Positions 12,718 to 48,600 of a stretch of DNA of 64,000 bases are shown piece by piece. Numbering within the stretch: the first letter of the stretch is position 1; each line of letters opens with the position of its first letter. The translations under genes and the position numbers were made by a program. The notes beneath the pieces were generated by a model, which was not told where the DNA came from, searched no databases, and saw only the letters and a program-made list of their open reading frames with translations. The stretch is from an uncultured Candidatus Saccharibacteria bacterium (GTDB taxonomy: Bacteria > Patescibacteriota > Saccharimonadia > Saccharimonadales > CAZDQS01): the NCBI GenBank assembly GCA_964507855.1, contig CAZDQS010000002.1:91284-155283 (forward strand). The letters are read 5' to 3'.

Positions 12718-12753
12718 TTGGCTGGGGATGAGGGATTCGAACCCCCGATCACG
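12718..12753. repeat. prophage att repeat, tRNA-distal copy (36 bp)
   Basis: ttggctggggatgagggattcgaacccccgatcacg is identical to 48565-48600. Confidence 0.9.
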
Positions 12754-12772
12754 AATCTAGAATTTCAGGGGT

Positions 12773-12808
12773 GATTCTAACCCCCATGATTATTCTGATT
12801 CTAACCCC
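12773..12808. promoter_or_regulatory. candidate integrase arm-type sites (direct repeat GATTCTAACCCC x2)
   Basis: The 12-nt repeat occurs at 12773-12784 and 12797-12808, between the att core and the int stop codon. Confidence 0.4.
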
Positions 12809-12838
12809 TAAGAGAGAGAACTACAGTTAATCGTATCC

Positions 12839-12877
12839 GTTAACTACGATTGACTTGTGAATTCGCGTTAGCTACGA
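12839..12877. promoter_or_regulatory. second direct repeat GTTA(A/G)CTACGA x2 near att/int
   Basis: Copies at 12839-12849 and 12867-12877 differ at one position. Confidence 0.3.
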
Positions 12878-12931
12878 ATAGCTAAATATACCCCTTAGTA
12901 TACTGCCTATGCTAAGGAATGTCAAGCAGAA

Positions 12932-13783
12932 TCAGTAATTACTCGTATGGAATTGGCGGGCTACTTGAGCAACCTCCGGATTCTGCAAGTGTGAGTATAT
13001 ATCTATCGTTGTAGTGATACGGGAATGTCCGGCGATTTTCTGTACCATAGCCATTGGCGCGTGATTCTTAATGTAGTCCGTAATGGTTGAGTGCCGGAAT
13101 ACATGAGCTGATACGTTCTTATCTATGCCCGCCTCTAGGGCGCATTTACGGAGCATCTTATCTACTGTCGTGTAGTGTATTCTGCCGTACTGCCCGGACA
13201 TAAACAGTGGCTTGAATCTATCGTTTCGCTCAGCTAAATAAGCATCAAGATATTTTCGGGCTGTGCTGTCAATATAGACTTCTCGGTACTTGTCTCCCTT
13301 ACCGCAAACCATAGGTTCGTTATTGTTCACAACATCCTCTACGTTCAATGAAAGCAGCTCAGAAATTCTGCACCCTGTTGAGAACAGCATGGCGATAATT
13401 GCCTTATCACGGGTGTTTTTCGCAGCTTCAATCATGGCCTTTACTTCTTCGACCTCAAGCCAATTAGGATCTGGTTTCTCTACACTAGGAAGGCTGATAT
13501 CACGCGTATCAATAACCTTTAACCCTCGTGTTTCCATATAGCGCAAAACACTACGTAAACAGACGATATTCTTATAAATTGTTGAGGATTTATTAGGCTT
13601 CTGCCGCATGTACTCTTTCCACACCACGATACTGTCCATAGTAACCAGCTCTATAGGGGTATCGCCACACGCGTCTAAATACGACTGAATGGCACAATGA
13701 TAATTATGAATTGTCTTTGGTTTGCGGCCTTCGTAGCGTAGTACGTTAATTTCGTAAATATTAAAAGCTTCACTGAGCAACAT
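12932..13783 (-). CDS. int: tyrosine recombinase / phage integrase (XerC/D-like, 283 aa)
   Basis: Motifs STGCRISELLSL (Arg), HVFRHS (H-x-x-R) and TTTIDIYSH (Tyr). GAGGAG RBS. Adjacent to the att repeat. Confidence 0.9.
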   Translation of the reverse strand: MLLSEAFNIYEINVLRYEGRKPKTIHNYHCAIQSYLDACGDTPIELVTMDSIVVWKEYMRQKPNKSSTIYKNIVCLRSVLRYMETRGLKVIDTRDISLPSVEKPDPNWLEVEEVKAMIEAAKNTRDKAIIAMLFSTGCRISELLSLNVEDVVNNNEPMVCGKGDKYREVYIDSTARKYLDAYLAERNDRFKPLFMSGQYGRIHYTTVDKMLRKCALEAGIDKNVSAHVFRHSTITDYIKNHAPMAMVQKIAGHSRITTTIDIYSHLQNPEVAQVARQFHTSNY

Positions 13784-13978
13784 TGAACACTCCTCATCTG
13801 GTTAATGAGTACCTTAAACCCCTCCTAACAAAAACGCCCCAGGAGTATTCCCAGGGCTACAGACAGCGAGCGGTTGTTTTGAATCGTATCATCGTTTTCA
13901 ATCCAACCATACCCACCTCGCTCTTAAGTTGTTCCCTAAGTATACTTTGTAAAGTTAAGCGTTAGCAATATTGACTTT

Positions 13979-13992
13979 GTTAGAATTCTAAC
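13979..13992. promoter_or_regulatory. perfect 14-bp palindrome GTTAGAATTCTAAC upstream of int (candidate operator)
   Basis: Perfect palindrome just upstream (minus sense) of a TTGCTA-18-TATACT promoter-like sequence facing int. Confidence 0.3.
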
Positions 13993-14407
13993 AGTTAAGT
14001 TAGTGTTTTAATCTGTTTTGGATAATACCAACCCTGCCTGTTTGTTGAACATAGATTGAGGTAGGTTGGTGGTTAGTAAATAGGAGTCGAATTTGCATTG
14101 TTAAAGTTCAGGCAATAGCAAACAAGACCCTTTGGTTTTTGTACCCTCCAAAAAGTTTTAGCAATTATGCCCGGCCTTCTGCAGAAAAGCCGTACTTGTT
14201 TACCTGCCCTGCCCGTCCGTCGCTACATGAGTCTCGGTTTCGGCGGCCACTTCTTTTAACCCGGAGTGACGCTTTAAGGTGGTCGGGTATAGATGGGAGT
14301 AAAAAAACTCCCTTACCCAGTAACGTTGGGTTAAGAGAGTGTCAAGTGTGATTTTATGACATCCCTTACGGGAGGCCATAGATCGGTTCTGCATTCATAA
14401 AATACCA

Positions 14408-14474
14408 TAAAAAATTAAGGGACTCAAGTTAACGGCAAGAGTCCCTAATGGGAGGTATACATAAACTTCCCTCC
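14408..14474 (-). ncRNA. candidate short phage transcript (promoter followed by a terminator, ~65 nt)
   Basis: An extended -10 TGATATAAT (rc of 14481-14489) is followed by GGGACTC-13 nt-GAGTCCC-TTAATTTTTT (14408-14445). Only a 5-codon ORF lies inside. Confidence 0.3.
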
Positions 14475-14550
14475 TGTCATATTATATCATTTCGGGCTAT
14501 CATTCGCTACTGGCTCTGGTACCGCCTAAACCAGCCAAAGATTAACTGTG

Positions 14551-14862
14551 TTATTTCGAGAACTTGGCAACAAGATAGCTTATGACTCCCGTTACAATCC
14601 AGGTTAGGACAACGCCGATTACTACTTTAGAGTTTTTGAATAGCCGTTTGTCAATTTGTTCATCAGCATATTCCTGAACCTTACGCATAAACGGTACAGT
14701 TTCTGTGTATTCTTCAATAAGTTCCTTGGTGCGGGCGCGGAACTTCTCTTGTTGTAATAAGCGTGAAGCTTTCTCTACGATGACATCACTGGATGTTGTA
14801 GGCTGCTCGAGCAGAGTGTCAACGGGCAGAATGTCATCGGTTGGCTTTTTTTTCTGAGGCAT
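14551..14862 (-). CDS. phage membrane protein (C-terminal TM helix)
   Basis: 103-aa ORF in a tightly packed same-strand gene string; hydrophobic C-terminus VVIGVVLTWIVTGVISYLVA. Confidence 0.5.
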   Translation of the reverse strand: MPQKKKPTDDILPVDTLLEQPTTSSDVIVEKASRLLQQEKFRARTKELIEEYTETVPFMRKVQEYADEQIDKRLFKNSKVVIGVVLTWIVTGVISYLVAKFSK

Positions 14863-15088
14863 TATTAATCTCGTCTACTCGTCGCATTAGGGCAATCGCA
14901 ACTCGGAGAACTTCCTCGAGGTTAGTGAGATGGAAGTTTTGCTGTAATTGTTCCAGCTCCTCTAAAGCTCCATTGGTAAAAGCGACGGTGTATACTTCTT
15001 TGCCGTCTTCATCCGTGGTGCTACGTTGTCCTTTTATAGGCATACCCATATCATACAACAAGTTCAAGATTGCATGCTGCTTTTTCAC
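14834..15088 (-). CDS. hypothetical phage protein
   Basis: 84-aa ORF, contiguous with neighbours on the same strand. Confidence 0.5.
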   Translation of the reverse strand: MKKQHAILNLLYDMGMPIKGQRSTTDEDGKEVYTVAFTNGALEELEQLQQNFHLTNLEEVLRVAIALMRRVDEINNASEKKANR

Positions 15089-15400
15089 CTATTCACTCAG
15101 TCCGGGTATCTCTGCCTCTAGCTCATTCATCATCAGGTTTACATACCACTCTTGGGTTTGGTCGTCGGGGTACGGGTCAATGCTCTTTGGGAAGTGCCGC
15201 TCCTCGAGGGCTTGCAGCAGTTCCTCCGTTACCCTCACACCAAGTAAGTTGCCCTCGTCCGTCCGTAGCTCAACGTGGTTCAGGTGCGCCCATGCTTCGC
15301 TAAAGCGGCGGACACGGGTATTGCCGTAGTGGAAAGTGATACCTGCGGTTTCTATCGTGGGGCTTACCCACTCGCCATTCTCGTTTATTCGTTCACCCAT
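15089..15400 (-). CDS. hypothetical phage protein
   Basis: 103-aa ORF abutting the next gene with no gap. Confidence 0.5.
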   Translation of the reverse strand: MGERINENGEWVSPTIETAGITFHYGNTRVRRFSEAWAHLNHVELRTDEGNLLGVRVTEELLQALEERHFPKSIDPYPDDQTQEWYVNLMMNELEAEIPGLSE

Positions 15401-15588
15401 TCTATGCCGACCTCCTCGGTGAAAAGGTTATCGTTTAAGGTATTGAGCTGTTCGAGTAGCAGGTCTATCTTCTCCCATGCTTCACGGCGCACGACATTGC
15501 CTGTGTCGGGGTCGATGACAAACTCCCGCTGCTCGTCCAGCAGACGGTAGATAATTTGCTTTTCCAGTGACGCTTCTAGCTGTTTCAT
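15385..15588 (-). CDS. hypothetical phage protein
   Basis: 67-aa acidic ORF overlapping its neighbours by a few nt. Confidence 0.45.
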   Translation of the reverse strand: MKQLEASLEKQIIYRLLDEQREFVIDPDTGNVVRREAWEKIDLLLEQLNTLNDNLFTEEVGIEWVNE

Positions 15589-15875
15589 CGTCCGTATATC
15601 TTCCTGCGCTTGGTGGCGCTTAAATATATATCTGCTTCTTCTATGGCGTGTAGCATGACTTCATGGCTCGGCTTGATTGGCGGTGCTTCAGTGGCATGGC
15701 GTTGCTCATGGAGTCGCCGACAGATGAGCCGTTTGTTTTCTTCCAAGTTACGAAAGGTACTCTCTATGGACGTCGGGTAAGCCGAACGCGGCCAATAGTA
15801 GTGGTCAACATCCTCTTTGCACCCAACCTCGTAGTATTTGCACTCCGGGCTTGGATTGCAGGGGATGCGTTCCAC
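15585..15875 (-). CDS. hypothetical Cys/His-rich phage protein
   Basis: 96-aa ORF (CNPSPECKYYEVGCKEDVDHYYWPR...CRRLHEQRH); possible metal-binding fold. Confidence 0.5.
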   Translation of the reverse strand: MERIPCNPSPECKYYEVGCKEDVDHYYWPRSAYPTSIESTFRNLEENKRLICRRLHEQRHATEAPPIKPSHEVMLHAIEEADIYLSATKRRKIYGR

Positions 15876-15878
15876 TGG

Positions 15879-16079
15879 CTATTTCCTGTTTCTTTTAAGC
15901 CAGACGGACAAACCTTGCACCGCACCGCCTGCCAGTGCCGTGAGCGCATCGTTAACGGTCATTTCACCGTCTATGCCAGCCAGTGCCAGTAAGAGCATCC
16001 CACCGCCAGCTAGAAAGCCCACAATGGCCTTCTGGTTGCCTGCGATGATGAATATCATTGCCCTGCGTAGTAAATACAT
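15879..16079 (-). CDS. putative holin (two TM helices)
   Basis: 66 aa with two hydrophobic segments and a basic C-terminus (WLKRNRK), next to the endolysin. Confidence 0.5.
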   Translation of the reverse strand: MYLLRRAMIFIIAGNQKAIVGFLAGGGMLLLALAGIDGEMTVNDALTALAGGAVQGLSVWLKRNRK

Positions 16080-16190: not shown

Positions 16191-16964
16191 TTACTTACTC
16201 CCTATCAGTTCTCTTATGAGAGCCTTGAAGACTTCCCATTTAGAACTCTCACCTTGCTGGGCTGACAAGGTTGCTAGCTGCTTATTCAGGCGGTCAATCT
16301 CAGCGTCCTTTATTTTCAGCGCCTTTTCCATCTCTGGTACTTTATTGACGTACTTGGCGTAGAAGTTTTGCCAGGTTTCCCGGGATTTGCGGAAGTCACC
16401 GGCTTCTTTGGTTTGCCACTGGTTCCAGAGATAATCGTTGGTTTCCATGCCGCCATACGTGTCTGTAAATACCTTGTCGTACTTCCCGGCATGGGTTTCT
16501 TTCATCGGCCAGCCTTTAAATTCGGTGTGTATCATCCGCATAATGACGGGATCTACTTTGCTCACAGCTTCCTCCTCTAGGTTCCATTTAATTGCGTTGT
16601 CGTAGTTGGCTTTGTTTTGTTTTACGGAAATATGAACGTGTTTGTCATGCGGGTTTGTCCCCCGATACGGCAACCAGTTACCCGGCTCATACGCGATATT
16701 GCGGTTCCAGATGACGTACCAGGTGCGGGGGTCGTGCATAAGCTGGTCGGCTAGTCGCTGGCCGTCTACACCGTTGGCAGGGTCATGAGTAATGTCCATA
16801 GCTGTGACAACTCCTGCGGAGTTCGGGTTGTGTTCACTGGTCACTTTCTGGTGCGCTGCGTCACCAATCGTGCCGTCACTGGCTTTGTTGCGGTTCGGGT
16901 AGGCGGCGTTAATCTGGTTTCGGAGTGTCTCCAGACTGCCTGCTAACCGCCAGTTCCCTGCCAT
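16191..16964 (-). CDS. endolysin, LAS/M15-type zinc peptidase-like N-terminal domain plus coiled-coil C-terminus
   Basis: The pattern SEHNPNSAGVVTAMD ... DKHVHIS gives the H-x(n)-D ... H-x-H metal ligands of LAS peptidases. Flanked by small TM proteins. Confidence 0.6.
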   Translation of the reverse strand: MAGNWRLAGSLETLRNQINAAYPNRNKASDGTIGDAAHQKVTSEHNPNSAGVVTAMDITHDPANGVDGQRLADQLMHDPRTWYVIWNRNIAYEPGNWLPYRGTNPHDKHVHISVKQNKANYDNAIKWNLEEEAVSKVDPVIMRMIHTEFKGWPMKETHAGKYDKVFTDTYGGMETNDYLWNQWQTKEAGDFRKSRETWQNFYAKYVNKVPEMEKALKIKDAEIDRLNKQLATLSAQQGESSKWEVFKALIRELIGSK

Positions 16965-16965: not shown

Positions 16966-17172
16966 TCAGCTCCCCAGTTTGTCCCAGAACGCTAAGGCCA
17001 GTCCCACGCAGGTAAAGCCGAGGCCAATAAGCCACTTGGCAATGGAGAACTCTCGGCGGGTCACGAAGCCTTCTTCCAGCGCATCAAACTTCTTAATCAG
17101 CGCATCAAGTTTCGCGTCTATGTTCTTTGTGCGCTCGTCCAAGGTTGCTATCCTTTCTGCTTGCGTTGCCAT
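16966..17172 (-). CDS. small coiled-coil protein with a C-terminal TM helix (holin/spanin-like)
   Basis: 68 aa, with C-terminal WLIGLGFTCVGLALAFW; sits directly upstream of the endolysin. Confidence 0.45.
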   Translation of the reverse strand: MATQAERIATLDERTKNIDAKLDALIKKFDALEEGFVTRREFSIAKWLIGLGFTCVGLALAFWDKLGS

Positions 17173-17310: not shown

Positions 17311-17934
17311 TTAGGCTGCTTCAGTTTCCGCTACTAGATACCCGTGGAAGAAATTTGTTTCTGCACTAGTGCCGAGTCCCATAGAGTAGGATTGAGTATG
17401 GCCGATGAGGACGGTGACGTAGTCGCCCGCTTCCAGCTCTAGCAGCGCCGATACTCCGACAAACATGGGTTGTGTGTTGCCATCGCTGTTGCGATTGCGG
17501 TCTCCGTACTTCACCCGCGAGCCGTTTTTATACAGATGCATATACACGATGTCGCCCGTCACCGCCGAGGCGTAGCTGCCAGCCTCAAAGTAGTACGTCC
17601 CAGCAATCGGCGCGGTATACCGTCCGGTAGAGGTGTCGAAGTCGCTGTTTGGGTCAAATTCCACGGCATTATAGACCACCGGCTCAAGAGTACTGGAATT
17701 TGGAACGCTGGAAGAGCTGGCACGATAGGCGCTGAACCTGTAGGGATTTGTCCATTTTTTTGGAGTTACTGAGCCGTCAGCTAGTTTTGAGCCGTCTATC
17801 GCAGCATTGGCAGCGATATTTGAATTATCAAGACTACCATTGATTTCATTAACAATGGTGTTTATAGGCGTGTTGTATTGTGAGACGGTTGCAGCCGACC
17901 CGTCAGAAGGAAGCGATACACTAATGTTACCCAA
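17311..17934 (-). CDS. tail fibre / receptor-binding protein with a C1q-like C-terminal head
   Basis: TTG start at 17934, 8 nt after GGAGAC in the conserved late leader. C-terminal RFSAY...VVYNAVEFDPNSDFDTSTGRYTAPIAGTYYFEAG matches the C1q/TNF-like signature. Confidence 0.6.
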   Translation of the reverse strand: MGNISVSLPSDGSAATVSQYNTPINTIVNEINGSLDNSNIAANAAIDGSKLADGSVTPKKWTNPYRFSAYRASSSSVPNSSTLEPVVYNAVEFDPNSDFDTSTGRYTAPIAGTYYFEAGSYASAVTGDIVYMHLYKNGSRVKYGDRNRNSDGNTQPMFVGVSALLELEAGDYVTVLIGHTQSYSMGLGTSAETNFFHGYLVAETEAA

Positions 17935-17948
17935 GGCAAGGTCTCCGA

Positions 17949-17976
17949 CCTGCCCGACGTTATAGTCATTATACCA
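17949..17976 (-). promoter_or_regulatory. phage late promoter and leader, copy 1
   Basis: Minus strand reads TGGTATAAT-GACTATAACGT-CGGGCAGGTCGGAGAC. Confidence 0.6.
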
Positions 17977-18279
17977 TTTTTGACATGGTAATATAAGGAT
18001 GCCCAGGTTCCGGTTCTTCCGGTCTTTCCCCTGGGCTTTTTTAGTACAAAGAAAAACAGCCCTTAATGGATGATGAAAGATTCCGTTTAACGCATGTCTG
18101 CGACAGTAACCACATTCGTTACTGATGAATCCCATACTGTCCGAGCTGTTTTGTAAGGTAGTATCTTTCCTTTATACCTTAACCTTACAACACACATATT
18201 AGCATAAGTAGTATAATTTGTCAATAACTTTATAGCATTTATGCTTGTATATTATCTTACATTATGGTATTGTTGCGCC

Positions 18280-18864
18280 ATGAATCAGTTTATTATTAAG
18301 AATAAGCTTGTTGTAACCGTAATTACGGGATTGATCGCCCTGATTGGCTTTAGTGCGTACATAGTTACCTCTAATGTCCTTGAAATGCCATCTGAGGCGC
18401 AAGTACAGAGTTCCACCACTGGATATAGCGGTTTAACAGTATCTGATAGCCCAAGTTCAACTTCCTCACAGCAGGAGTCCACTCCTGAACCAAATACACC
18501 TGTAACGACTCCCGTAGTAATTAGCCAAATGGATATACAGGAGCCTCAGGATGCTCCAGAAAGCACCTATCAGCCGCCAACAACGCATAATGAAGAACTG
18601 CCCAAAATAGACCGCTCTGCATACATACAGGCATGCAATGCGTCTAAAGATGCGGATATTGACTACAATCGCGCCTTGTATAACGCTGAAAAGGCGAATC
18701 ATACACGGAAACTTGAACAAATCGGTACAGAGTGGCGAAGTAGAGGTATGGGATTCAGTGGCGGCTATGAGCAAGCCAAGCAGAACGAAATAACCCGTCA
18801 CAATAACGCTTTAGCTGCTTTGGATGCTCAACTAGCGCAACTCAAGACGAAAGTCTGCGCTTAG
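18280..18864 (+). CDS. opposite-strand moron: membrane-anchored S/T/P-rich protein
   Basis: The only plus-strand prophage gene. Start MNQFIIKNK, then TM helix VVTVITGLIALIGFSAYIV, an S/T/P-rich linker and a Q/A-rich C-terminus. Confidence 0.5.
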   Translation: MNQFIIKNKLVVTVITGLIALIGFSAYIVTSNVLEMPSEAQVQSSTTGYSGLTVSDSPSSTSSQQESTPEPNTPVTTPVVISQMDIQEPQDAPESTYQPPTTHNEELPKIDRSAYIQACNASKDADIDYNRALYNAEKANHTRKLEQIGTEWRSRGMGFSGGYEQAKQNEITRHNNALAALDAQLAQLKTKVCA

Positions 18865-20813
18865 AAAGCTCCGGCGTACTGCATTAAGGCATCTTCAAGC
18901 GTACTGTTGCTGGTAGGCTGCATAAAGCTTTCTAGTTCTGCCCGCACGTTTGCTAGTTTTCGTCTTGCGGATTCAGCAGAATCGCCCGGTTGCGGGAGTA
19001 GTCTTGCGAATCGTTTAGCTTCTGCATCTGTAATCGCTGCACCAGATCGAAGTCGGGCTATAACATCCACCACGTTGTCGGTAGCCGCTCGTATGTCTGT
19101 TGTGCCTGTAAGTCGAGCAGTAATTCCAAGCGGATTAGGGAGTGCTTGGCGTTGGAACGCTCCTGGATCTGTCGCAAGCATTTCTTCAAGTGTCTGGAGA
19201 GATCGCAGACCGGATTGCGAAGTAAGCGCACGCTTGGCAGCTTCACCGCTTAATGGCTTGGCTTGTTCCTCTTGCGGATTAGCGAACTCGTACAGTTTCA
19301 TATAGTAGTCTGCGTTTGCGGGATCATTCTGTATGTCGAACAAGGCACTCTCCAAGGAGTACATACTTTGCGACTGAGAAGCCTGTGCAAAAGGACTTGA
19401 CATTTGCGGCGCACTCTGGTACTGTTGCGATATGTTAGCAGTTATCGGTGCATTACTGTTTGGTGTGGCGCTTGTGGTCATAGCGTTAGTGTTCGAAGAC
19501 TGAGCATTTGTCAAAGCGTCCACAAGACTCTCTGCTGCTACTCCCCTTGTCGCACCTGTAACCGCGCCCCTAGCTCCACCGGATTTTACTGCCCCGGAAG
19601 CCAATCTTCTGGCCAGTGCATCAGTTCCCCTTGCCATTAGCCGTCTTCCGGCATTACTGTTACCGGCTGCAACAACCGCCGCCGTTCCAAGACCGGCCGG
19701 GCCAAAAGCTGCACTTCCCGCTGTCCCTCCTAGTAGAGTCGTCATCCCGAATGGTAGGCTGCCAGACCCAAGATAGTCTTGCCTTCCCGTTATTTCAGCT
19801 AAGTCTTCAAGCTGGCTAATTCGCCGCCCTAGATCTTTGAAACTGAGACCCTGGCTGGATTTTAGACCTGCTTTATCTGCTGCGTTTTGCATCAATTCAC
19901 GGAGCGCAGAAGCCGTCTTCCGGCTTACGCCTTCATCTGACGTTCCTCTGAGCGTATAGCGCACAGCGGAATCTGCTTCTTGACGCAGGGCATTAACGAT
20001 GTCAGACGGTATCTCATCTTTATATTTCTTAGCGATATTATCAGCTACGGACTTCAGTTGCCTGCCGAGTTGCTGCTGTGCTGGAAGGACACTATCTAAC
20101 AGAGGTTGGTACGTCTTTCTTAAAGCACCTGTTATCTGCGATGTCTTAAAGGATGGAATACTTTTGCCGATAGATGCGAAATCCTCATATAGAGACGGTA
20201 ATTTTTGTGTAATTTCATCTGGACTGTTTATCCCAATTTCTTTAATAACTTTAGTTGCATCTATGCCGTGCTTGTTTTTGAAATTAAACTGTTGCGTGGG
20301 GTTGAGTCTGAACTGCTTTGCGACCATCTTATTGCTGGCATTAGCTACTTTACCACCTAGCGAACCCCTGATACTAACTTTTGCAGCGTCGTCAGCGGCG
20401 GTCGTCAAAGCCCTCCCTACGCTCGCTCCGCCTTTTAGTACTTTGGCAGCGGTAGCACCATATTTCCCAAGTCTTAACGGCCCCGCTAAGACGGCAGAGA
20501 GAGCGCCCTCCTTTGCTGCGTCTCCAACTCTGAATTCATCATCACGCACCTTGTTCTCTACCAGCCCGCCGCCGAATGCACCCAAGCCTGCACCTAAAAT
20601 GCCGCCTATGGCCGTCCCGACCACTGGAACGACTGAGCCTATAGTCGCACCGGCGGCCGCTCCGCCTAGTGCTCCCCCTTCAGAAATAAGAGAGGTGAGA
20701 GTTCCGCCACGTCCTCTTGGCTTGGATGGTTGCTGTGCAGTCGTTGCCTGTGGCTGAGGATTAATGTCAAACAAAGGCTTTGGCTGCCAGTTAGCTTGCA
20801 AAAATGGATTCAT
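18861..20813 (-). CDS. large virion-associated protein with a Gly/Ala-rich hydrophobic N-terminal region (internal/ejection protein by position)
   Basis: 650-aa ORF with GGALGGAAAGATIGSVVPVVGTAIGGILGAGLGAFGGG. Its position after the tail genes resembles podovirus internal proteins. The function is a guess. Confidence 0.55.
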   Translation of the reverse strand: MNPFLQANWQPKPLFDINPQPQATTAQQPSKPRGRGGTLTSLISEGGALGGAAAGATIGSVVPVVGTAIGGILGAGLGAFGGGLVENKVRDDEFRVGDAAKEGALSAVLAGPLRLGKYGATAAKVLKGGASVGRALTTAADDAAKVSIRGSLGGKVANASNKMVAKQFRLNPTQQFNFKNKHGIDATKVIKEIGINSPDEITQKLPSLYEDFASIGKSIPSFKTSQITGALRKTYQPLLDSVLPAQQQLGRQLKSVADNIAKKYKDEIPSDIVNALRQEADSAVRYTLRGTSDEGVSRKTASALRELMQNAADKAGLKSSQGLSFKDLGRRISQLEDLAEITGRQDYLGSGSLPFGMTTLLGGTAGSAAFGPAGLGTAAVVAAGNSNAGRRLMARGTDALARRLASGAVKSGGARGAVTGATRGVAAESLVDALTNAQSSNTNAMTTSATPNSNAPITANISQQYQSAPQMSSPFAQASQSQSMYSLESALFDIQNDPANADYYMKLYEFANPQEEQAKPLSGEAAKRALTSQSGLRSLQTLEEMLATDPGAFQRQALPNPLGITARLTGTTDIRAATDNVVDVIARLRSGAAITDAEAKRFARLLPQPGDSAESARRKLANVRAELESFMQPTSNSTLEDALMQYAGAF

Positions 20814-37438: not shown

Positions 37439-37451
37439 CGATGTAGCTCCA

Positions 37452-37478: not shown

Positions 37479-37481
37479 TAC

Positions 37482-39817: not shown

Positions 39818-39881
39818 AGTACGGTTCATGCAAACCTCTGAGCAATCGGCGGTTGCGCCGTTCTTTGTTATAAGTCTGATT

Positions 39882-41315: not shown

Positions 41316-41704
41316 ACCGCCTCCTCGCTCTTAGGGTTCTGGGTGAGTTGGGCTAAGTCATCACGAACCTTTTTCTCGTATTTATCACACTTTTCGCAAT
41401 CACAACCCTCGCTAAAGCTGCCACCGACTTGACCACTTCGTATGTATTTTATGCAGGTATCAACTGCTCGCTCCCTTACCTCTGCTAATAGCTTGAGCTT
41501 TTCGGTGCGGATATGGTCGTTGATTTCGTGAGCAACAGCAATCATTAAGCCTTTATTATTTGGTGGTACGTCCGCCCAAGGCACTGCACTTGCTTTTCTA
41601 GTCTTATAGCTAAACGCAGGAGCTAGACGTTCGTAAGTATCGTGAAATAGCTTTGCGAGCTTTTCATCTTCGCTAGCTTGATTGGTGTCTGTAGTGTTGC
41701 TCAT
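41312..41704 (-). CDS. hypothetical phage protein
   Basis: 130 aa; contains a CDCEKCDKYEKK Cys cluster. Confidence 0.5.
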   Translation of the reverse strand: MSNTTDTNQASEDEKLAKLFHDTYERLAPAFSYKTRKASAVPWADVPPNNKGLMIAVAHEINDHIRTEKLKLLAEVRERAVDTCIKYIRSGQVGGSFSEGCDCEKCDKYEKKVRDDLAQLTQNPKSEEAV

Positions 41705-41931
41705 ACATCAGTCCTTTCTTCTTTTAGTGGTGGGGCTGTAAGTCCGATAGGCTCTCTGAACTCCCACTGTTTGTGGCTGGCGTAACTTTTCAGTAGTTCG
41801 CACAGCAATACCTTGTCGCAACCGTCAGCTTCTGCCATCTGGTCAATCGTTTGTGCCAAGAAATCAAAGTTCTGTAGGGTTTGGTTTGTGCCTGATACGT
41901 CTTGTCGGTATTCAATACTTCTGTGCATCAT
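41701..41931 (-). CDS. hypothetical phage protein
   Basis: 76-aa ORF with a 4-nt overlap. Confidence 0.45.
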   Translation of the reverse strand: MMHRSIEYRQDVSGTNQTLQNFDFLAQTIDQMAEADGCDKVLLCELLKSYASHKQWEFREPIGLTAPPLKEERTDV

Positions 41932-41952
41932 AATTCATCTCCTATTTATTAG

Positions 41953-42252
41953 TTATTTAGTTGGTGTAGCTAGGATTCTTCTCACCCTATTCAGTATTGC
42001 CGTCCGCTTCCTAGCATTTTGCTGACGCTCCATATAAAAGCTGTGTCGTTCTTCGCATGGTTTACACATGTCATCAACAGGCTTTCCAAATTCTGAGCGA
42101 TAGATACATTGCGTTGGTTGCTCTAAGTAACCGTTACTCTGCATATTCCGACACTCGTAAGTTTCGTGAAATTTTACAATCTCTCGCTTTTTTGCAGTTT
42201 GACTATCTTTCAAACGGAACCATTCCTGCATAAGAGTTTCAACCTCGCTCAT
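41953..42252 (-). CDS. hypothetical phage protein
   Basis: 99-aa ORF. Confidence 0.5.
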   Translation of the reverse strand: MSEVETLMQEWFRLKDSQTAKKREIVKFHETYECRNMQSNGYLEQPTQCIYRSEFGKPVDDMCKPCEERHSFYMERQQNARKRTAILNRVRRILATPTK

Positions 42253-42270
42253 ATCATTCCTTTCAATTAG

Positions 42271-42603
42271 TTATTTAGTTGGGGAGCGGAACTTGCTTAA
42301 AGCTATCAGCCGCATATCTTCTAGGTGGCGTTCTGTTGCTGCAAGTTTGCCCTCTGCGATACTGTCTTTGTTGGTCTTAATACCTTTACTTGCGAGAGCT
42401 TCTGCAAACGCCTGTAACTGGTCATCTGACATTACTGCAAAATATAGCTCATCCTCTTTACATACAGCACCTTCTGGAATAGTTTGAGCTGTTCCATCAT
42501 TCTTAATGAATACCGTTCCATCCTTCCTATGCTGAAAGAGGAACACTCTGTAATTAATCATCCCTGGTACTTGTTGTATGTGAACTTTGAAATCTCCGAA
42601 CAT
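42271..42603 (-). CDS. hypothetical phage protein
   Basis: 110-aa ORF. Confidence 0.5.
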   Translation of the reverse strand: MFGDFKVHIQQVPGMINYRVFLFQHRKDGTVFIKNDGTAQTIPEGAVCKEDELYFAVMSDDQLQAFAEALASKGIKTNKDSIAEGKLAATERHLEDMRLIALSKFRSPTK

Positions 42604-42650
42604 CTATTCCTCCTTAATGTAATGTTAGTTCTATTAGCTTTGGGTTGGGG

Positions 42651-42806
42651 TTAAATCCCTACCTTTACGAGCGTTCGGCATCCACAGTTCTGACATTTCT
42701 GAGCAATTGCCAAAGTGCCTTTGTTAATTGTGTAAGTGCGACGCTCTCCGCAGTTAGTGCATCGTAGCGTCATGATGTAGGTGCCTAAGTCGAAATCCAT
42801 ACTCAT
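42651..42806 (-). CDS. small zinc-ribbon protein (51 aa, absent from the ORF track)
   Basis: MSMDFDLGTYIMTLRCTNCGERRTYTINKGTLAIAQKCQNCGCRTLVKVGI has two CxxC pairs. GAGGAGA RBS. Confidence 0.45.
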   Translation of the reverse strand: MSMDFDLGTYIMTLRCTNCGERRTYTINKGTLAIAQKCQNCGCRTLVKVGI

Positions 42807-43105
42807 TCTCCTCATTAGCTTTATTGTTTAGAAGCGCAGGGGAGGGAGCAGACGGCGACCTGACATCGTTTCTATAGTCGTCTGTCAGGAACATTTACGC
42901 TAAAGGCCGCTTCCCGAAGGTAGCGAAGTCCCGAAGGAATTTCTATCCGCTCCCACTACTACGCTCTAATTGTTTAAGGTGCTGGCGAGGGGTTAGCTTG
43001 CATCTAAAAGTCTCCTATTATTTCAAGGCACACGAGCTAACCATATCCTCGCCTGCTTCTGGACTTACATAACCTTTTCAAGGACTGATGGGTTAATGCC
43101 AGAGG

Positions 43106-43243
43106 TTAATACGTTACGTTAATTTGCTTCTCTACCCGTTCCACCTGCTCCCGTAGCTGCTGGATAGCGTAGTGCTGGCCTAAGTTGGTGAGGCTGATTA
43201 CCAGCAGCAAGAGGGCGAATAGTAGGGTTATGAGGCGGGTCAT
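43106..43243 (-). CDS. small TM protein (45 aa, absent from the ORF track)
   Basis: MTRLITLLFALLLLVISL...; ATGA overlap with the upstream gene's stop. Confidence 0.35.
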   Translation of the reverse strand: MTRLITLLFALLLLVISLTNLGQHYAIQQLREQVERVEKQINVTY

Positions 43244-43431
43244 AGTTCCTGTAATTTCTTTACTGCGGCTCTAGCGGCTGCTTTGTCCTTGTAGCTAATG
43301 TGGTGGTCTTCTCCATGTGCGAGCGTATAAGTAACATTGCCTAAGTCGTCGATATATATGCTGGCAATTTGTTCAACGTTCACGAGTATGACAAAATCCT
43401 TGTCATTAGATATGTTGATGAATTTGCTCAT
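43240..43431 (-). CDS. hypothetical phage protein
   Basis: 63-aa ORF. Confidence 0.45.
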   Translation of the reverse strand: MSKFINISNDKDFVILVNVEQIASIYIDDLGNVTYTLAHGEDHHISYKDKAAARAAVKKLQEL

Positions 43432-43442
43432 GTTTTTCTCCT

Positions 43443-43802
43443 TTATCTCAACTCCGGCTTAAGTTCTAACAAGTGCCAGTGTGAATGTGTTTTAACTGAT
43501 TGCATGTTGGTGAAGTTCATCTCTAATCGGTGAAACTTGCCCAACTCATTCTGTCGCTTTGCGATATGTTGAAGCTCCCTAAGCTGTGGGATGGTGTAGT
43601 CCCAAAACTGTACGTTTGGCTGCTTCAGTACAATTAAGTCGTGGTCATGGTCACCAACAATTACGTCATGCGGATAGCCGTTTTTTATGATGCAGAAATG
43701 CTCGCCGTCCCACAATCTTGGTTCTTCCAGCAGGTTCTTCAGCCTTCCTGCAAGCTTGTCGGCTTGGTAGCGGGCTTCTAGTTCGGGGGTTCGCATGGTC
43801 AT
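43443..43802 (-). CDS. HIT-like (histidine-triad motif) protein
   Basis: The C-terminal THSHWHLL fits the H-phi-H-phi-H-phi-phi histidine triad; 119 aa. Confidence 0.45.
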   Translation of the reverse strand: MTMRTPELEARYQADKLAGRLKNLLEEPRLWDGEHFCIIKNGYPHDVIVGDHDHDLIVLKQPNVQFWDYTIPQLRELQHIAKRQNELGKFHRLEMNFTNMQSVKTHSHWHLLELKPELR

Positions 43803-43960
43803 ACCACTCTCCGTTCTAAATCATAGGTTTCGACTTTGCCGCACTTACATTTACGTTGCTTCAGGGTATCTTGGGCTGTTTTGCTTCCAGCGCTCAAGAG
43901 TACCTTTTGCTCTACTAGTTCTTCGTACTTGTGGATGTGGGGTTCTGTTTTGGGTTTCAT
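43799..43960 (-). CDS. small hypothetical protein (53 aa, absent from the ORF track)
   Basis: ATGA overlaps at both ends link it to the neighbouring genes. Confidence 0.35.
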   Translation of the reverse strand: MKPKTEPHIHKYEELVEQKVLLSAGSKTAQDTLKQRKCKCGKVETYDLERRVV

Positions 43961-44100
43961 ATCAACGCCATCAGAATATTAAAGACGCTAACCAAGGCCA
44001 TTATCATTGCCCACGTATACTTCTCCTCATATAGATATGAAATTGCTAAGGCTAATGCCCCGCCCGCTATAAAGCTGCTCGCAATATCGTAGCCATTCAT
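43957..44100 (-). CDS. small TM protein (47 aa, absent from the ORF track)
   Basis: MNGYDIASSFIAGGALALAISYLY...MIMALVSVFNILMALI; ATGA overlaps at both ends. Confidence 0.35.
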   Translation of the reverse strand: MNGYDIASSFIAGGALALAISYLYEEKYTWAMIMALVSVFNILMALI

Positions 44101-44459
44101 TTCTTCTTCCCCTTCTTCGGCTTTACTTCACCCCACTGGTCATCTTGTCCGTAGGCGTGGCCGTGAATGGATGGATACTCTGATTCAGCCTCACGGGCGA
44201 AGATCCGGGCGCCGTGGTTCTCGCCTAAGTCATAGAGCAGGGTGTACAGTCTGCTGCCGTAAAGTTCCGGTTGGTTAAGTTGTCCCTCGACTTCTTCAAG
44301 CCGTTTCCAGACGTAGATAAGGCACACCAGCACGACCAACAGCAGCGTGGTTTCGATGCCGAGGTGAGCTATCAGCAGCGCCAGCACAATAAGTACGGCG
44401 GATATACTGCCTAGCAGAAACCAATCTATGCCCCGTAATGATTCCTTGAGCGTTTTCAC
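44097..44459 (-). CDS. phage membrane protein
   Basis: 120 aa with two TM helices (WFLLGSISAVLIVLALLIAHLGIETTLLLVVLVCLIYVW). Confidence 0.5.
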   Translation of the reverse strand: MKTLKESLRGIDWFLLGSISAVLIVLALLIAHLGIETTLLLVVLVCLIYVWKRLEEVEGQLNQPELYGSRLYTLLYDLGENHGARIFAREAESEYPSIHGHAYGQDDQWGEVKPKKGKKK

Positions 44460-44644
44460 TTCTTCCCCCTTAGTTTCCTGCCCAAAATGGCTTGATAATG
44501 TTGAAAGCTGATAAAACGATAAAGCCTGACGAAAGACCGACCAGGAGCCATATAAGCCTCCGGGCGCTTTCTAATGCGGCGTTCTGGTGGTTCGCTTTCC
44601 AGCCGTTGAAAGAACTTAAACCCTTCATCGTACCCTCCTTGCAT
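44456..44644 (-). CDS. hypothetical phage protein
   Basis: Start moved to ATG 44644 (AAGGAGG RBS) to remove the overlap with the KGG gene. Confidence 0.4.
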   Translation of the reverse strand: MQGGYDEGFKFFQRLESEPPERRIRKRPEAYMAPGRSFVRLYRFISFQHYQAILGRKLRGKK

Positions 44645-44648
44645 GTGG

Positions 44649-44843
44649 CTAGCCCTCCTTGTAGCGTCGGCTGATGCGGCCACCCTTAGCGCCCGCGATA
44701 CGAGCCAGCTCACGGTTGGCATAGAAGCCGCCGGTGCGGCCTTTCTTACCTCCCAAAGCGCCTATCTTGGCGTAGTAGTTCTCGCCGTATTTTTCTACAT
44801 TCGTTTTGGCGGCTCGCTGTCCACCGATTTTGGTTCCTGCCAT
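44649..44843 (-). CDS. KGG-repeat stress-protein-like small protein
   Basis: GGKKGRTGGFYANRELARIAGAKGGR resembles the KGG (YciG/con-10) repeat. Confidence 0.45.
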   Translation of the reverse strand: MAGTKIGGQRAAKTNVEKYGENYYAKIGALGGKKGRTGGFYANRELARIAGAKGGRISRRYKEG

Positions 44844-45241
44844 TAGCTGTCTCCTTTTACCTTGTCTAAGCTCCGGCTGCCCTTGAGCGAGTTGCAGAAG
44901 TAACAGGCCGGTTTAATGTTCTTGCTATCTGTCCTGAGTTGTGGCGCTCGTGACTTGGGTACTACATGCTCTAAAGTGAGCGTATCTATATCTAAGTTCC
45001 GTATGCAGTCTGGTGAAATTTGCAAATAGCACACCCATGGCCCCGGATTGTCCTTAATCCAGCCGTGCCGGAACTCCACCCATTCTTTCGCCACCTTGCC
45101 CATCCGCTTGATGGGCTTTCTTGGCTTGGCGTATCTATTAAATTGGCACTTGCCGCAATATCGCTGGGTTGTTGTATAGCGAACGAACGTATGCCCACAA
45201 CCGACGCACATGTACTCCGGCATTACTCTGCCAGCCTCCAC
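44843..45241 (-). CDS. HNH endonuclease
   Basis: CVGCGH...CGKC zinc cluster and LEHVVPKSR...NIKPACYFCNSLKG HNH core. Confidence 0.8.
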   Translation of the reverse strand: MEAGRVMPEYMCVGCGHTFVRYTTTQRYCGKCQFNRYAKPRKPIKRMGKVAKEWVEFRHGWIKDNPGPWVCYLQISPDCIRNLDIDTLTLEHVVPKSRAPQLRTDSKNIKPACYFCNSLKGSRSLDKVKGDS

Positions 45242-45888: not shown

Positions 45889-46515
45889 TTACTTGCCGTA
45901 GTCCATAACGAACGCTACTTGCTGTTCGACCTCAGCAAGAAACTTAGTTACCTCTGCTTCTAGTTCTTTGATGTAGTCCTCATCCCGATAGATGCGGACG
46001 GTAATCATCTGAGCGTTTTCCGGCAAGCGCGGGTCATAGCTGATGAAGTCGCACCACTGCCGTTCGGTTATCCAGAGCTGCCCCATCACTTGGTCGATGT
46101 ACTGCTTGGGGAGTTGTCCGGTCTTTAACGTCTCAACGTGCGTTGCCGTGTTTGGGCATTTAATCTCTACCAGCCCGTCACTGCCTACGAGTCCATCGGG
46201 GCTTGCACCAGCGTCGATACTGTCGTGCAGCCAAAGGCTCGTTGCTTCTACTTCATTGCCGGTTTGCAGGCTGTAGTTGAGCAGCGCCACCGGCTCGTTG
46301 TCGATGCCCCACTGCATAGCGGCTGATATGAACGGCTCCGGTGCCGTGCCGGTGAGCCGTTCGGTTACTAATTCAGCCGCGTAGTTCTTGCGGGATGCCG
46401 CATAGCCGGTGCGGGTGCGGGCGTTGATGTCGTTAAAGCGGCTGGCTGTGGCTTTGCCGAGCCGTGCCTGATACCACTCAGGCGTCCGCTGCTCCACTTC
46501 GATTACTTTCGGCAT
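45889..46515 (-). CDS. YqaJ-type (lambda Exo-like) recombination exonuclease
   Basis: EQRTPEWYQARLGKATASRFNDI ... GASPDGLV...GLVEIKCP is the YqaJ/PD-(D/E)xK signature. Confidence 0.8.
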   Translation of the reverse strand: MPKVIEVEQRTPEWYQARLGKATASRFNDINARTRTGYAASRKNYAAELVTERLTGTAPEPFISAAMQWGIDNEPVALLNYSLQTGNEVEATSLWLHDSIDAGASPDGLVGSDGLVEIKCPNTATHVETLKTGQLPKQYIDQVMGQLWITERQWCDFISYDPRLPENAQMITVRIYRDEDYIKELEAEVTKFLAEVEQQVAFVMDYGK

Positions 46516-46996
46516 CTTTCAGCTCCTTGATACGTTGGTTGATGATTGGTGTTGCTTCCCGTTTCTGTTCAGGATTCAGCCGTGCCAGTATTTCCGCGAA
46601 CTCCTCTCGCTTGGTTGCTGCACGAATGTCGCTGATGGCCTGCTCGAACTGTTCCTGCTTGTATTGCTCGAACTCCTCCATTTCCTCGGTTGTCGCAATT
46701 TGCCCGTTGTTGAGGTAGCCAAGCAAGGCCAGCGCCCGTCCGACGGCGACGGTTTCCAGCTTTTCAAATGCCTTGTCGCCTTGGTTCTTGCCGTAGCTGT
46801 GGCCGGTTGCTTCCGCCGAGTTGGGGTCTTTCTTGTCCTTGACGATACGTGCCGAAAACACAATCATACCGTCTGGCTGTATCGTTGGTTTGGTTTCCAC
46901 GACTGCCCGTGGGTTCTGCTTCCTAAACTCTAAAAGTCTCTGAGGTACAGTTGCGTACTCATTACCTTTGAGGCTTATCGTCTGTACGTGTGCCAT
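46478..46996 (-). CDS. putative single-strand annealing protein (partner of the exonuclease)
   Basis: 172 aa immediately upstream of, and overlapping, the YqaJ gene. KLETVAVGRALALLGY is reminiscent of Rad52/Sak-type annealases. The family call is tentative. Confidence 0.45.
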   Translation of the reverse strand: MAHVQTISLKGNEYATVPQRLLEFRKQNPRAVVETKPTIQPDGMIVFSARIVKDKKDPNSAEATGHSYGKNQGDKAFEKLETVAVGRALALLGYLNNGQIATTEEMEEFEQYKQEQFEQAISDIRAATKREEFAEILARLNPEQKREATPIINQRIKELKDAESNRSGAADA

Positions 46997-47005
46997 GTGG
47001 CCTCC

Positions 47006-47137
47006 TTATTCTTCTTCCACGACCTGTAGGCCGTATTCTTGTGCCAGAAGTTGCAGCTTAGCTAGCAGCTTGGCGTAGTCGTTGGATGTCCATTCACCGG
47101 ACATATTGCCGGTGATGCGGATGTTTACCTTAGTCAT
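47006..47137 (-). CDS. small hypothetical protein (43 aa, absent from the ORF track)
   Basis: AAGGAAG RBS then MTKVNIRITGNMSGEW... Confidence 0.35.
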   Translation of the reverse strand: MTKVNIRITGNMSGEWTSNDYAKLLAKLQLLAQEYGLQVVEEE

Positions 47138-47145
47138 ATGCTTCC

Positions 47146-47367
47146 TTACTTGTTAAAGTGGCGAAGCAGCTCGATAGCCCCACGCAGCGCAATAATGGCG
47201 CTGGCGAAGGCTAGCAAGTAGCGGTAGACTCCATCCACGCGCCCTACCTTGACGGCGTAGGCGGCGTAGGCGGCAACGGTTACAAGTGCGCTGGCTTGGA
47301 CAAACTCCACAATGTTACGAAACGTCTTTGTGGTGTTCTGCTTCGCTTCTAATGCTTTCTCTTTCAT
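47146..47367 (-). CDS. small membrane protein
   Basis: ATG at 47367 behind GGAGGGTGG; two TM helices. Confidence 0.45.
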   Translation of the reverse strand: MKEKALEAKQNTTKTFRNIVEFVQASALVTVAAYAAYAVKVGRVDGVYRYLLAFASAIIALRGAIELLRHFNK

Positions 47368-47388
47368 GGTTCCCACCCTCCTTAAGGG

Positions 47389-47613
47389 TTAATCTTCAAA
47401 TGGTTTATCTATGTAGTGATAGTTCTGCCTGTCCAGCCAGTACTTGTCCGGCATGACAATTGCTTTTGTTTCAAGGACGTGCCGCTTAACGGGTATCCTG
47501 TAGGTTCTTGATTTTTGCGTGACGATTATCTTCTTGCTGCCTAATTCTCGGGCCAGCATTTCTCTCATTGGTGCAAATACGTCGATCATCGTATCCAAAA
47601 TGCCTTTCCCCAT
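47389..47613 (-). CDS. hypothetical phage protein
   Basis: 74-aa ORF. Confidence 0.45.
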   Translation of the reverse strand: MGKGILDTMIDVFAPMREMLARELGSKKIIVTQKSRTYRIPVKRHVLETKAIVMPDKYWLDRQNYHYIDKPFED

Positions 47614-47786
47614 TGCTTACGATTCATGGTTCCCACCCTTTCGTTACTTACGTTTGGTATGCCTTACGAGCCAACCAGTGGGCGAATACCGCCGGGACTA
47701 CATTGTTTGTCCTCTCCGCCCACCGGACGACCCGTAAGGAAACTCAGGAGTCGGCCAAGTCTCGCACAAGGCCGACCCACCCTGAG

Positions 47787-48320
47787 TTAGTAGCAAGACA
47801 CAATCCGTTTGTTACACACCGTCCAATGCCGCCAGCCGCCACTTGCGTAGAGCTTGAAGGCTTTGGCGATGTTCGCTTCAGGATTCTGCATCTCACTACA
47901 GCTTGGCCTGCCCGGAAGGAATCTCACTTGGAATAATCCGCATGACATCCCGTACCTCGTACCGTTCTGGAAATAAGTGAGGTGGCCGTCTCCAACGGCG
48001 GTAGGGTTACACCCCGATTCTGCCCGCATAACGTTGAGTGCCACGTTCACGTTCCAGTCGTACCGAGCTACCAAGTCTCTGTACTGCTCACACCCGACTG
48101 GATGTGAGACTGTTGCCACAACAGGTTTTACTGCCTCTTGTGGCTTCTCCGGTTTCGGTTCAGTTTGCGGCTGTGGGCTAGGTTCGACACGTTTGGACTC
48201 TTGAACTGTCGCTTGCACCGGCTGAGCGTTTACTGGCTCCTGTACCGAATTGTTAATGTTCCCCGGAGATACGAGCCATACTGTTATGAGTACGGCTATG
48301 AGTAGCTTGAGGCTGCCCAT
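47787..48320 (-). CDS. secreted lytic transglycosylase (SLT domain)
   Basis: Signal peptide, P/Q/E-rich linker, then MRAESGCNPTAVG...GLFQV, the catalytic Glu-Ser and GLxQ motifs of SLT. Confidence 0.75.
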   Translation of the reverse strand: MGSLKLLIAVLITVWLVSPGNINNSVQEPVNAQPVQATVQESKRVEPSPQPQTEPKPEKPQEAVKPVVATVSHPVGCEQYRDLVARYDWNVNVALNVMRAESGCNPTAVGDGHLTYFQNGTRYGMSCGLFQVRFLPGRPSCSEMQNPEANIAKAFKLYASGGWRHWTVCNKRIVSCY

Positions 48321-48474
48321 AATCCCCCTTACACCTCTGGGAACTCCATCCCAGCTTTGTTTAGTCGAAGCTAGTAGTGTCGTATCCCTCTACTTGAGGC
48401 CGATAACGTCACGTTCGCTTCACAGAGTTATTCACCCTGGGAAGTCACAGAACCGATCTATGGCCTCCATAAAG

Positions 48475-48503
48475 CAAAAAACCCGCTAACTTTCGTTAAC
48501 GGG
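48475..48503 (-). terminator. intrinsic terminator (second of two downstream of tRNA-Gln)
   Basis: Minus strand reads CCCGTTAAC-GAAA-GTTAGCGGG-TTTTTTG. Confidence 0.6.
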
Positions 48504-48516
48504 TACGTTTGGGTAC

Positions 48517-48542
48517 AAAAAATCCGGCTATTTCTAGCCGGA
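48517..48542 (-). terminator. intrinsic terminator (first downstream of tRNA-Gln)
   Basis: Minus strand reads TCCGGCTA-GAAA-TAGCCGGA-TTTTTTG. Confidence 0.65.
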
Positions 48543-48564
48543 TACAATCTTCTGTTTACTTCTC

Positions 48565-48600
48565 TTGGCTGGGGATGAGGGATTCGAACCCCCGATCACG
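48565..48600. repeat. prophage att repeat, tRNA-proximal copy (36 bp)
   Basis: Identical to 12718-12753; covers the 3' 35 nt of tRNA-Gln plus 1 nt. Confidence 0.9.

Follow-up and report, generated by a model that had tools for sequence, protein, structure and literature searches.

The 64,000-nucleotide stretch of contig CAZDQS010000002.1 that was analysed here (the window) holds a candidate prophage bracketed by two perfect direct repeats. The window has exactly two copies of the repeated 36-mer, TTGGCTGGGGATGAGGGATTCGAACCCCCGATCACG (12718-12753 and 48565-48600), and 35,811 bp lie between them; the number expected by chance is zero (100 shuffles). No third copy with up to three mismatches is present in the window, which rules out tandem elements. 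The right copy, the core of the right attachment site (attR), forms the 3' end of an intact tRNA-Gln(CUG) on the minus strand (48566..48639), called with a CTG anticodon by ARAGORN and with 60.1 bits by the Rfam tRNA model; neither program finds anything else in the window. From the ARAGORN coordinates, the right repeat takes in the 3' part of the tRNA (variable region through encoded CCA) and one further nucleotide. The left copy, the core of attL, corresponds to the displaced 3' 36 nt of tRNA-Gln; 7 nt beyond it on the tRNA-sense strand come a GC-rich hairpin, GCCCA(C)/(G)TGGGC, and TTTTTCTT (12694..12710, minus strand, on the host side). Since 41 of 93 metagenomic tRNA-Gln genes with an identical 3' half likewise have a perfect hairpin and T-run within 60 nt, this hairpin reads as the likely original terminator of the tRNA. 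Directly 3' of the rebuilt tRNA stand two phage-borne terminator-like hairpins (48543-48522 and 48504-48481, minus strand). A preliminary description, made by a model from the sequence alone, had proposed perfect bracketing repeats, an intact tRNA-Gln(CUG) ending in the right copy and the original terminator beyond the left one, and all three proposals stand. Taken with the gene content, these features lead us to conclude that the element is very probably a temperate podovirus-type phage of ~35.8 kb, inserted into a Saccharibacteria chromosome at its tRNA-Gln(CUG) gene.

The insert carries about 57 genes and is 89.5% coding, and all credible genes but one lie on the minus strand, which is the strand of every phage gene below unless the plus strand is named. 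From the tRNA end, the blocks run: early genes, packaging and head, a sugar cassette, tail, internal proteins, receptor binding and lysis, small open reading frames (ORFs), a gap, and the integrase. Packaging is represented by a small terminase subunit (TerS; 38653..39162; GP3_package 7.2e-21) and a large one (TerL; 37482..38687; Terminase_3, Terminase_3C), followed by the portal (35723..37492; SU10_portal 7.5e-27; PDB 9k09_D 2e-9). Between portal and capsid, a position that makes it a scaffold candidate, a 250-amino-acid protein (34625..35377) has no family match and is 34-53% identical in relatives. The major capsid protein (33736..34608; phrog_267 5.8e-46; Phage_capsid_2) is followed by a conserved protein of 117 amino acids (33272..33625; 54% identical in one relative, L089). 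Past the sugar cassette, a conserved 208-amino-acid protein (28276..28902; 29-40% identical in three relatives, L088, L166 and L167) lies upstream of the fibre genes. The long tail fibre, of 835 amino acids (25785..28292), matches the P-SCSP1u fibre gp28 (8i4m_e) at 5.6e-15, and the head-to-tail adaptor (24924..25595) matches SU10_adaptor at 4e-26. The tail nozzle (661 amino acids; 22964..24949) was recognised by a match of its predicted fold to podovirus nozzles: its AlphaFold model, built on a 50-sequence alignment, has a predicted local distance difference test score (pLDDT) of 85.4, and Foldseek matches it to the nozzles of Pa223 (2e-17), SU10 (2e-16), A4, VP1, Pan3, HRP29, T7 (gp12) and P22 (gp10), with values ranging from 2e-17 to 1e-12.

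Downstream of the nozzle, three small ORFs of 132, 231 and 94 amino acids (21613..22964) have no family matches, the last being conserved in L166 and L167, and a conserved virion-module protein of 246 amino acids (20813..21553) is 48-67% identical in relatives. It is followed by a 650-amino-acid glycine-zipper protein (18861..20813; Gly-zipper_Omp), likely an internal or ejection protein, which keeps its position in relatives at 37-44% identity. The sole credible plus-strand gene of the prophage, between this ejection protein and the short fibre, encodes a 207-amino-acid membrane protein (18241..18864, plus strand; a membrane segment, no family match), possibly an accessory gene; near the same position, relatives have a different opposite-strand gene, of 114-168 amino acids. 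The short fibre or receptor-binding protein (274 amino acids; 17311..18135) ends in a C1q-like domain (C1q 1.9e-12), and its N-terminal ~58 amino acids are conserved in relatives.

The SU10_adaptor and SU10_portal matches, together with the predicted nozzle fold, support a short-tailed virion of podovirus type. In the ORFs scanned against Pfam and PHROG, no tail tube, sheath or tape-measure family turned up, and the match of the 650-amino-acid protein to tape-measure PHROGs is limited to a 40-residue glycine zipper. The gene list of the preliminary description (integrase, YqaJ exonuclease, HNH endonuclease, helix-turn-helix (HTH) protein, TerS, TerL, portal, capsid and SLT protein) is borne out by Pfam or PHROG matches, its two fibre genes by the P-SCSP1u and C1q matches, and its statement that sheath, tube and an obvious tape measure are missing by the same scans. 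Its comparison with T7-like podoviruses fits the order of the structural genes but fails in the family sense: neither an RNA nor a DNA polymerase has a Pfam or PHROG match, no ORF beyond the structural genes exceeds 283 amino acids, and without these polymerases the phage is not T7-like as a family member.

Known podoviruses offer several points of comparison. With SU10 (Kuravirus, PMC9509320), the prophage shares the Pfam portal and adaptor families, the predicted nozzle fold and a predicted short portal-adaptor-nozzle tail; on the other hand, the capsid family differs (Phage_capsid_2 and phrog_267 in the prophage), the prophage has an integrase, and the fold matches of the nozzle, SU10 included, come with a mere 8-13% sequence identity. 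As the portal, adaptor and nozzle families are all that the two have in common, the prophage does not fall within Kuravirus. The T7-like cyanopodophages (A-4L, Pf-WMP3, PP, P-SCSP1u) and the Pelagibacter podophages have the same structural gene order and the closest cultured capsids (24-31% identity), whereas the prophage lacks recognisable RNA and DNA polymerases, which places it outside Autographiviridae, and has no nucleotide similarity to the T7-like cyanopodophages. P22-type podoviruses are of the same temperate short-tailed type, with a tyrosine integrase, an attachment site at a tRNA 3' end and a nozzle (gp10) of matching fold, but in the prophage no tailspike or recognisable immunity region was found and the integrase is a compact, Xer-like protein of 283 amino acids. 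The best portal match (33%) is to an uncultured spring phage and the best TerL match (44%) to Flavobacterium phages. There is no DNA-level match to any GenBank phage, and sequence-only PDB searches returned nothing for the nozzle, the adaptor, the endolysin, the annealase candidate or the 266-amino-acid protein of the sugar cassette.

The integrase (12932..13783; Phage_integrase 1.7e-32; phrog_1 4.9e-50) lies 178 bp from attL. It is XerA/XerD-like, with scores under the curated equivalog cut-offs, and the catalytic motifs GCRISE, HVFRHS and IDIYSH, read from its sequence, are retained. Upstream of it is a gene-free stretch of 767 bp (13784..14550) with a terminator-like hairpin (13857-13836); gaps of 0.6-1.4 kb likewise lie upstream of the integrase in relatives, and the 767-bp gap has no nucleotide similarity to them. 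In the nearest species (L001), the tRNA-Gln(CTG) stands ~2.1 kb downstream of TrmD, as in the window; the sequence behind it, from another species and with a different downstream flank, contains no prophage gene homologues. Furthermore, the identical 36-mer was found on 93 metagenome contigs and is part of an intact tRNA in all 93, with no attP or attL fragments among the matches. Where at least 1.5 kb of downstream sequence is available, none of 58 contigs encodes a tyrosine recombinase, by a profile that finds the window's own integrase at 3e-112; these contigs are also from other species and their flanks differ from the window's. The 36-mer core has no match in IMG/VR, where searches with the nozzle and the integrase gave no close relatives.

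About 27 integrases are 37-61% identical to that of the prophage, and one of them sits on a 36,762-bp contig that is clearly of a sister phage (L264). Besides the integrase (58% identical), the two phages share the nozzle (63%), the 246-amino-acid protein (48%), the C1q fibre (38%) and the annealase candidate (60%). In L264 (10847-11775 for the integrase and fragment region), late genes, integrase, a tRNA-Gln-like fragment, a terminator-like hairpin with T-run, and early genes with the terminase follow each other contiguously, an arrangement that, by sequence, is the one expected of the free, unintegrated form. Its 36-nt stretch matches the core at 30 of 36 positions and looks like the 3' half of a tRNA-Gln(UUG), because upstream it enters, by eye, an anticodon loop with TTG. 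Between the integrase and this fragment, ARAGORN also calls a tRNA-Asn(GTT) of unusual length (86 nt; L264 11052-11137). Two further Logan assemblies, one of the same phage (L265) and one of another integrase-bearing phage (L266), stop exactly at the tRNA-like fragment, and in a fourth contig (L267) the same module of integrase and fragment (the latter at 10790-10825) runs on into early-type genes. This last contig otherwise has one small early gene in common with the prophage, and its integrase is labelled by NCBI as coming from a Saccharimonadales metagenome-assembled genome (MAG). Taken together, these four contigs support an integrase/attP module that would target tRNA-Gln genes in this phage group. 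The attB/attP pair and its integrase are also candidates for a genetic tool for Saccharibacteria.

The following sequence of events would account for the locus. In its circular form the phage would have an attP that contains the final 36 nt of the tRNA, and the integrase would recombine this attP with the chromosomal tRNA. The tRNA would thereby be rebuilt with the phage copy and phage terminators, while the host's own tRNA 3' end and terminator would be displaced by 35.8 kb. The virion would be assembled from portal, adaptor, nozzle and fibres, and the internal proteins of 246 and 650 amino acids would be ejected to cross the envelope.

A full-length set of packaging, head, adaptor, nozzle, fibre and lysis genes is present, and the full virion gene set rules out a satellite or genomic island. 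Nozzle homologues measure 656-665 amino acids and align over 100% of the query; the adaptor, portal, TerL, capsid and 266-amino-acid glycosyltransferase likewise match homologues of equal length from one end to the other, and no frameshifts were found in the structural genes tested. The preliminary description had called the prophage intact. This is right for the virion genes, which are full length, and for them only, because the rest of the element has no recognisable repressor, excisionase or replication gene. That deficit is also what a cryptic, domesticated prophage would present, one integrated as described that has since lost the ability to excise or be induced, and the 767-bp gene-free stretch beside the integrase could be taken as a further sign of decay. 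We regard such decay as improbable, however: the repeats are perfect across all 36 bp, every structural gene tested is full length, 89.5% of the element is coding, the catalytic motifs of the integrase are retained, and a gap upstream of the integrase is found in relatives too.

Several observations do weigh against an active temperate phage integrated at this site. Neither excision nor an empty site in the same species was observed, the k=31 Logan contigs of the flanks from the source runs stopping at or before the core; as these contigs break at the core, they do not distinguish the integrated from the free form. Pfam and PHROG scans gave no recognisable repressor/Cro switch and no excisionase or replication gene; the sole candidate regulator is a 102-amino-acid HTH_3 protein in the early operon, and there is no Xis-type match. 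In addition, no integrase was found in the fetched parts of most relatives in the clade. The break at the core bears equally on a technical explanation, an assembly chimera in which a free phage genome was joined to a host contig through the 36 bp common to attP and attB. Such a join would yield exactly the sequence observed, and independent k=31 assemblies do break there. We nevertheless consider it very improbable: a 36-bp repeat is shorter than the k-mers or reads that most assemblers need to bridge a junction, and the source contig is 163,242 bp long. Even if the chimera were real, the phage would remain a temperate, tRNA-Gln-targeting phage of the same host.

By its flanking genes, the host is a member of the Saccharibacteria, within the Candidate Phyla Radiation (CPR). 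Genes for ATP synthase subunits, TrmD, S16, a KH protein, RNase III, NusB, LeuRS, Ddl and MurF lie in the flanks. A search with TrmD returned 589 relatives in species-representative genomes, with a top match at 83% identity, and nearly all of the best 80 of these 589 are labelled Saccharibacteria or Saccharimonadales. In those best 80 loci, the order LeuRS-NusB-NUDIX-RNaseIII-S16-KH-TrmD is kept in 52-73, depending on the gene, and TrmD and LeuRS are 83% and 77% identical, respectively, to those of a Saccharibacteria MAG. These TrmD relatives and the conserved order from LeuRS to TrmD vindicate the preliminary description, which had suspected a Saccharibacteria-like CPR host. Identical host and phage proteins are encoded on short Logan contigs of the runs SRR7082966-84, and the nozzle and glycosyltransferase are also recorded on the 163,242-bp contig at NCBI. 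Soil MAGs (SMAG) and MAGs of other environmental catalogues are among the closest relatives of the host, and the prophage suggests that environmental Saccharibacteria carry prophages.

The available portions of two earlier reports describe prophages in this phylum: nine prophage groups in oral TM7, with none in three environmental TM7 genomes (Shaiber et al. 2020, bioRxiv 10.1101/2020.04.29.069278), and 120 Saccharibacteria prophages found by VIBRANT (Liu et al. 2023, PMC10746230). The earlier statement that temperate phages of such organisms are very poorly described was thus overstated. As presented in those portions, the published TM7 prophages are likewise integrated and have integrase, terminase and portal genes, but they were found by VirSorter or VIBRANT and are given there without attachment sites, tRNA target or virion type. 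Since Saccharibacteria prophages have already been published, the element described here adds a new and clearly delimited member to a kind already known.

What such a prophage adds is a link between phage and host. To our knowledge, CPR phages have been known almost exclusively through metagenomes and spacer matches, and a prophage with exact ends in a Saccharibacteria chromosome provides a firm host link for a metagenomic phage clade. The relatives number at least 499 by the nozzle and at least 574 by the 266-amino-acid glycosyltransferase, and because nearly all of them are on phage-sized contigs, of 43 kb or less, the integrated copy is useful as the clade's host anchor. By TerL, IMG/VR has 130 relatives (56-71% identity), some of them on contigs with 7000000xxx sample numbers. 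Among 80 fetched IMG/VR TerL loci (L081-L160), the portal is common to 11, the capsid to 6, and the SLT protein and a 94-amino-acid early protein to 23; this uneven gene sharing points to module shuffling.

The part of the element that most deserves experiment is a six-gene sugar cassette (28941-33269) inside the late structural operon, between capsid and fibre, which the preliminary description overlooked. Its first three genes, in the direction of transcription, encode a conserved 266-amino-acid GT-A glycosyltransferase of unnamed family (32469..33269), a conserved GT-A-like paralogue of 276 amino acids (31667..32497; 37% identical to the first and 55% identical in L089) and a conserved GT2 glycosyltransferase of 244 amino acids (30948..31682; Glycos_transf_2 2.4e-12; 69% identical in L089). 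They are followed by an RmlC-like cupin of 137 amino acids (30538..30951; dTDP_sugar_isom 5.2e-24), an RmlB-like nucleoside diphosphate (NDP)-sugar 4,6-dehydratase of 329 amino acids (29561..30550; GDP_Man_Dehyd 5.5e-46; Epimerase 2e-42) and a second GT2 glycosyltransferase of 216 amino acids, in the variable part (28941..29591; Glycos_transf_2 4.9e-6; phrog_14945). The 266- and 276-amino-acid proteins have no family match, and the first was assigned through its AlphaFold fold (pLDDT 87.7). The best fold match of this model is A197 of Sulfolobus turreted icosahedral virus (STIV; 1.9e-7), followed by mimivirus R699 and collagen glycosyltransferases, and the residues E65-D66-D67 are invariant. 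Since the TM-scores are modest (0.41-0.60), its fold class alone is firm. STIV A197 (PDB 2c0n), a small viral GT-A enzyme with a DxD motif, is its nearest structural neighbour, but it comes from an archaeal virus and the likeness, at 15% identity and a TM-score of 0.45-0.60, is one of fold class only.

Of the 574 homologues of the 266-amino-acid protein, the best 120 are at least 75% identical, compared with 62-70% for the nozzle. Relatives that cover the region (L089, L263) keep the trio of 266-amino-acid protein, 276-amino-acid protein and GT2 enzyme, while the other cassette enzymes are swapped in relatives for a UDP-GlcNAc 2-epimerase, an FdtA-like cupin, methyltransferases, a deacetylase, PhyH or an RGP-type transferase. 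With less confidence than for integration, we propose that the cassette would make a donor of the 6-deoxy-hexose type, with which four GT-A transferases would decorate virion proteins. The position in the late operon, the tight conservation and the variable accessory set favour virion glycosylation, as far as gene content can indicate it. More tentatively still, the trio and its swappable sugar-nucleotide enzymes might constitute a putative virion glycan-coat system, in which the variable part would set the glycan type. If this is true, the clade would be the first among CPR phages to encode, and to diversify, the glycosylation of its own virions.

Phage glycosyltransferases commonly alter the surface polysaccharide of the host, as is established for O-antigen conversion of the P22 and SfX types, and it is a real possibility, if short of an even one, that the cassette modifies the host envelope and not the virion, for lysogenic conversion, superinfection exclusion or protection against re-adsorption to debris. 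That precedent speaks for it, as does the fact that GT2 and Rml-like enzymes are typical of cell-wall glycan pathways. However, the cassette is co-oriented within the late operon between capsid and fibre, away from the integrase and attachment site; the trio recurs in L089 and L263, and the 266-amino-acid protein alone has those 574 homologues, of which the best 120 reach at least 75% identity; no integrase was found in the fetched parts of the integrase-less relatives; and the best fold neighbours, with modest TM-scores, include viral and protein-glycosylating GT-A enzymes. For decoration of the virion there is a parallel in mycobacteriophages, where, according to PMC11256854 and PMC11600133, which cite Freeman et al. 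2023, tandem phage glycosyltransferases are proposed or shown to decorate capsid or tail proteins. Those phages differ in host phylum and virion type, and in the prophage the genes lie between capsid and fibre and include sugar-nucleotide enzymes.

The remaining genes fall into the early region and the lysis block. Nearest the tRNA, a lytic transglycosylase-like protein (47787..48320; SLT_3 2.1e-7) has an N-terminal hydrophobic segment and is secreted or membrane-anchored. The annealase candidate of 172 amino acids (46478..46996) is so named from its position only, overlapping the start of the gene for the YqaJ-type recombination exonuclease (45889..46515; YqaJ 2.1e-24), and it belongs to phrog_11717, of unknown function. 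An HNH endonuclease (44843..45241; HNH 8.5e-6) and about 18 small early or middle ORFs (39293..44722), which include the HTH_3 protein (40455-40763), complete the early block. In one integrase-less relative (L082, 1821-2607), a protein with a dATP/dGTP diphosphohydrolase N-domain and a dCMP deaminase are encoded, a hint of nucleotide-pool or DNA modification.

In the lysis block, the endolysin candidate (257 amino acids; 16191..16964; phrog_32486) has an uncharacterised N-terminal catalytic domain with 5228 relatives. Because 21 of 47 sampled relatives match PG_binding_1 (11) or PG_binding_3 (10), this lysin is probably a wall hydrolase. It had been labelled as LAS-type, yet neither as a single sequence nor as a profile did it match any named family in Pfam or NCBIfam, those of M15/VanY type included, or a structure in the PDB. 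The invariant residues H38, D57, H109 and H111 fit the idea of an LAS zinc-binding site, but their spacing departs from the classic motif, and the label is unproven. The holin-like genes fared better, one membrane segment being predicted in each of the small proteins flanking the endolysin: one of 68 amino acids (16966..17172; residues 44-62) and one of 66 beside it (15879..16079; residues 18-36). Five small ORFs of 103, 84, 103, 67 and 96 amino acids (14551..15875) follow the lysis block; four were scanned, with no Pfam match, and the 96-amino-acid one has a homologue in L082.

Outside the prophage, PADLOC defence-system models have no match among the flank genes, nor among its orphan genes. 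Between the region of a giant surface protein and attL, the window has a low-GC stretch (10300-12717; GC 0.449, compared with 0.52 for the rest of the left flank) that encodes an Mrr_cat-like protein of 320 amino acids and an orphan protein of 237, both absent from 80 of 80 Saccharibacteria loci; the stretch could represent an older island next to this tRNA. The host protein of 2597 amino acids at 1498-9291, probably a giant surface protein, contains LVIVD and beta-propeller repeats, and a membrane segment is predicted at its N-terminus. On the other side, the interval from the tRNA to TrmD (48875-49791) encodes, by Pfam labels on an identical Logan contig, a Ni-superoxide dismutase, a DUF1653 protein and a small S24/S26-type peptidase.

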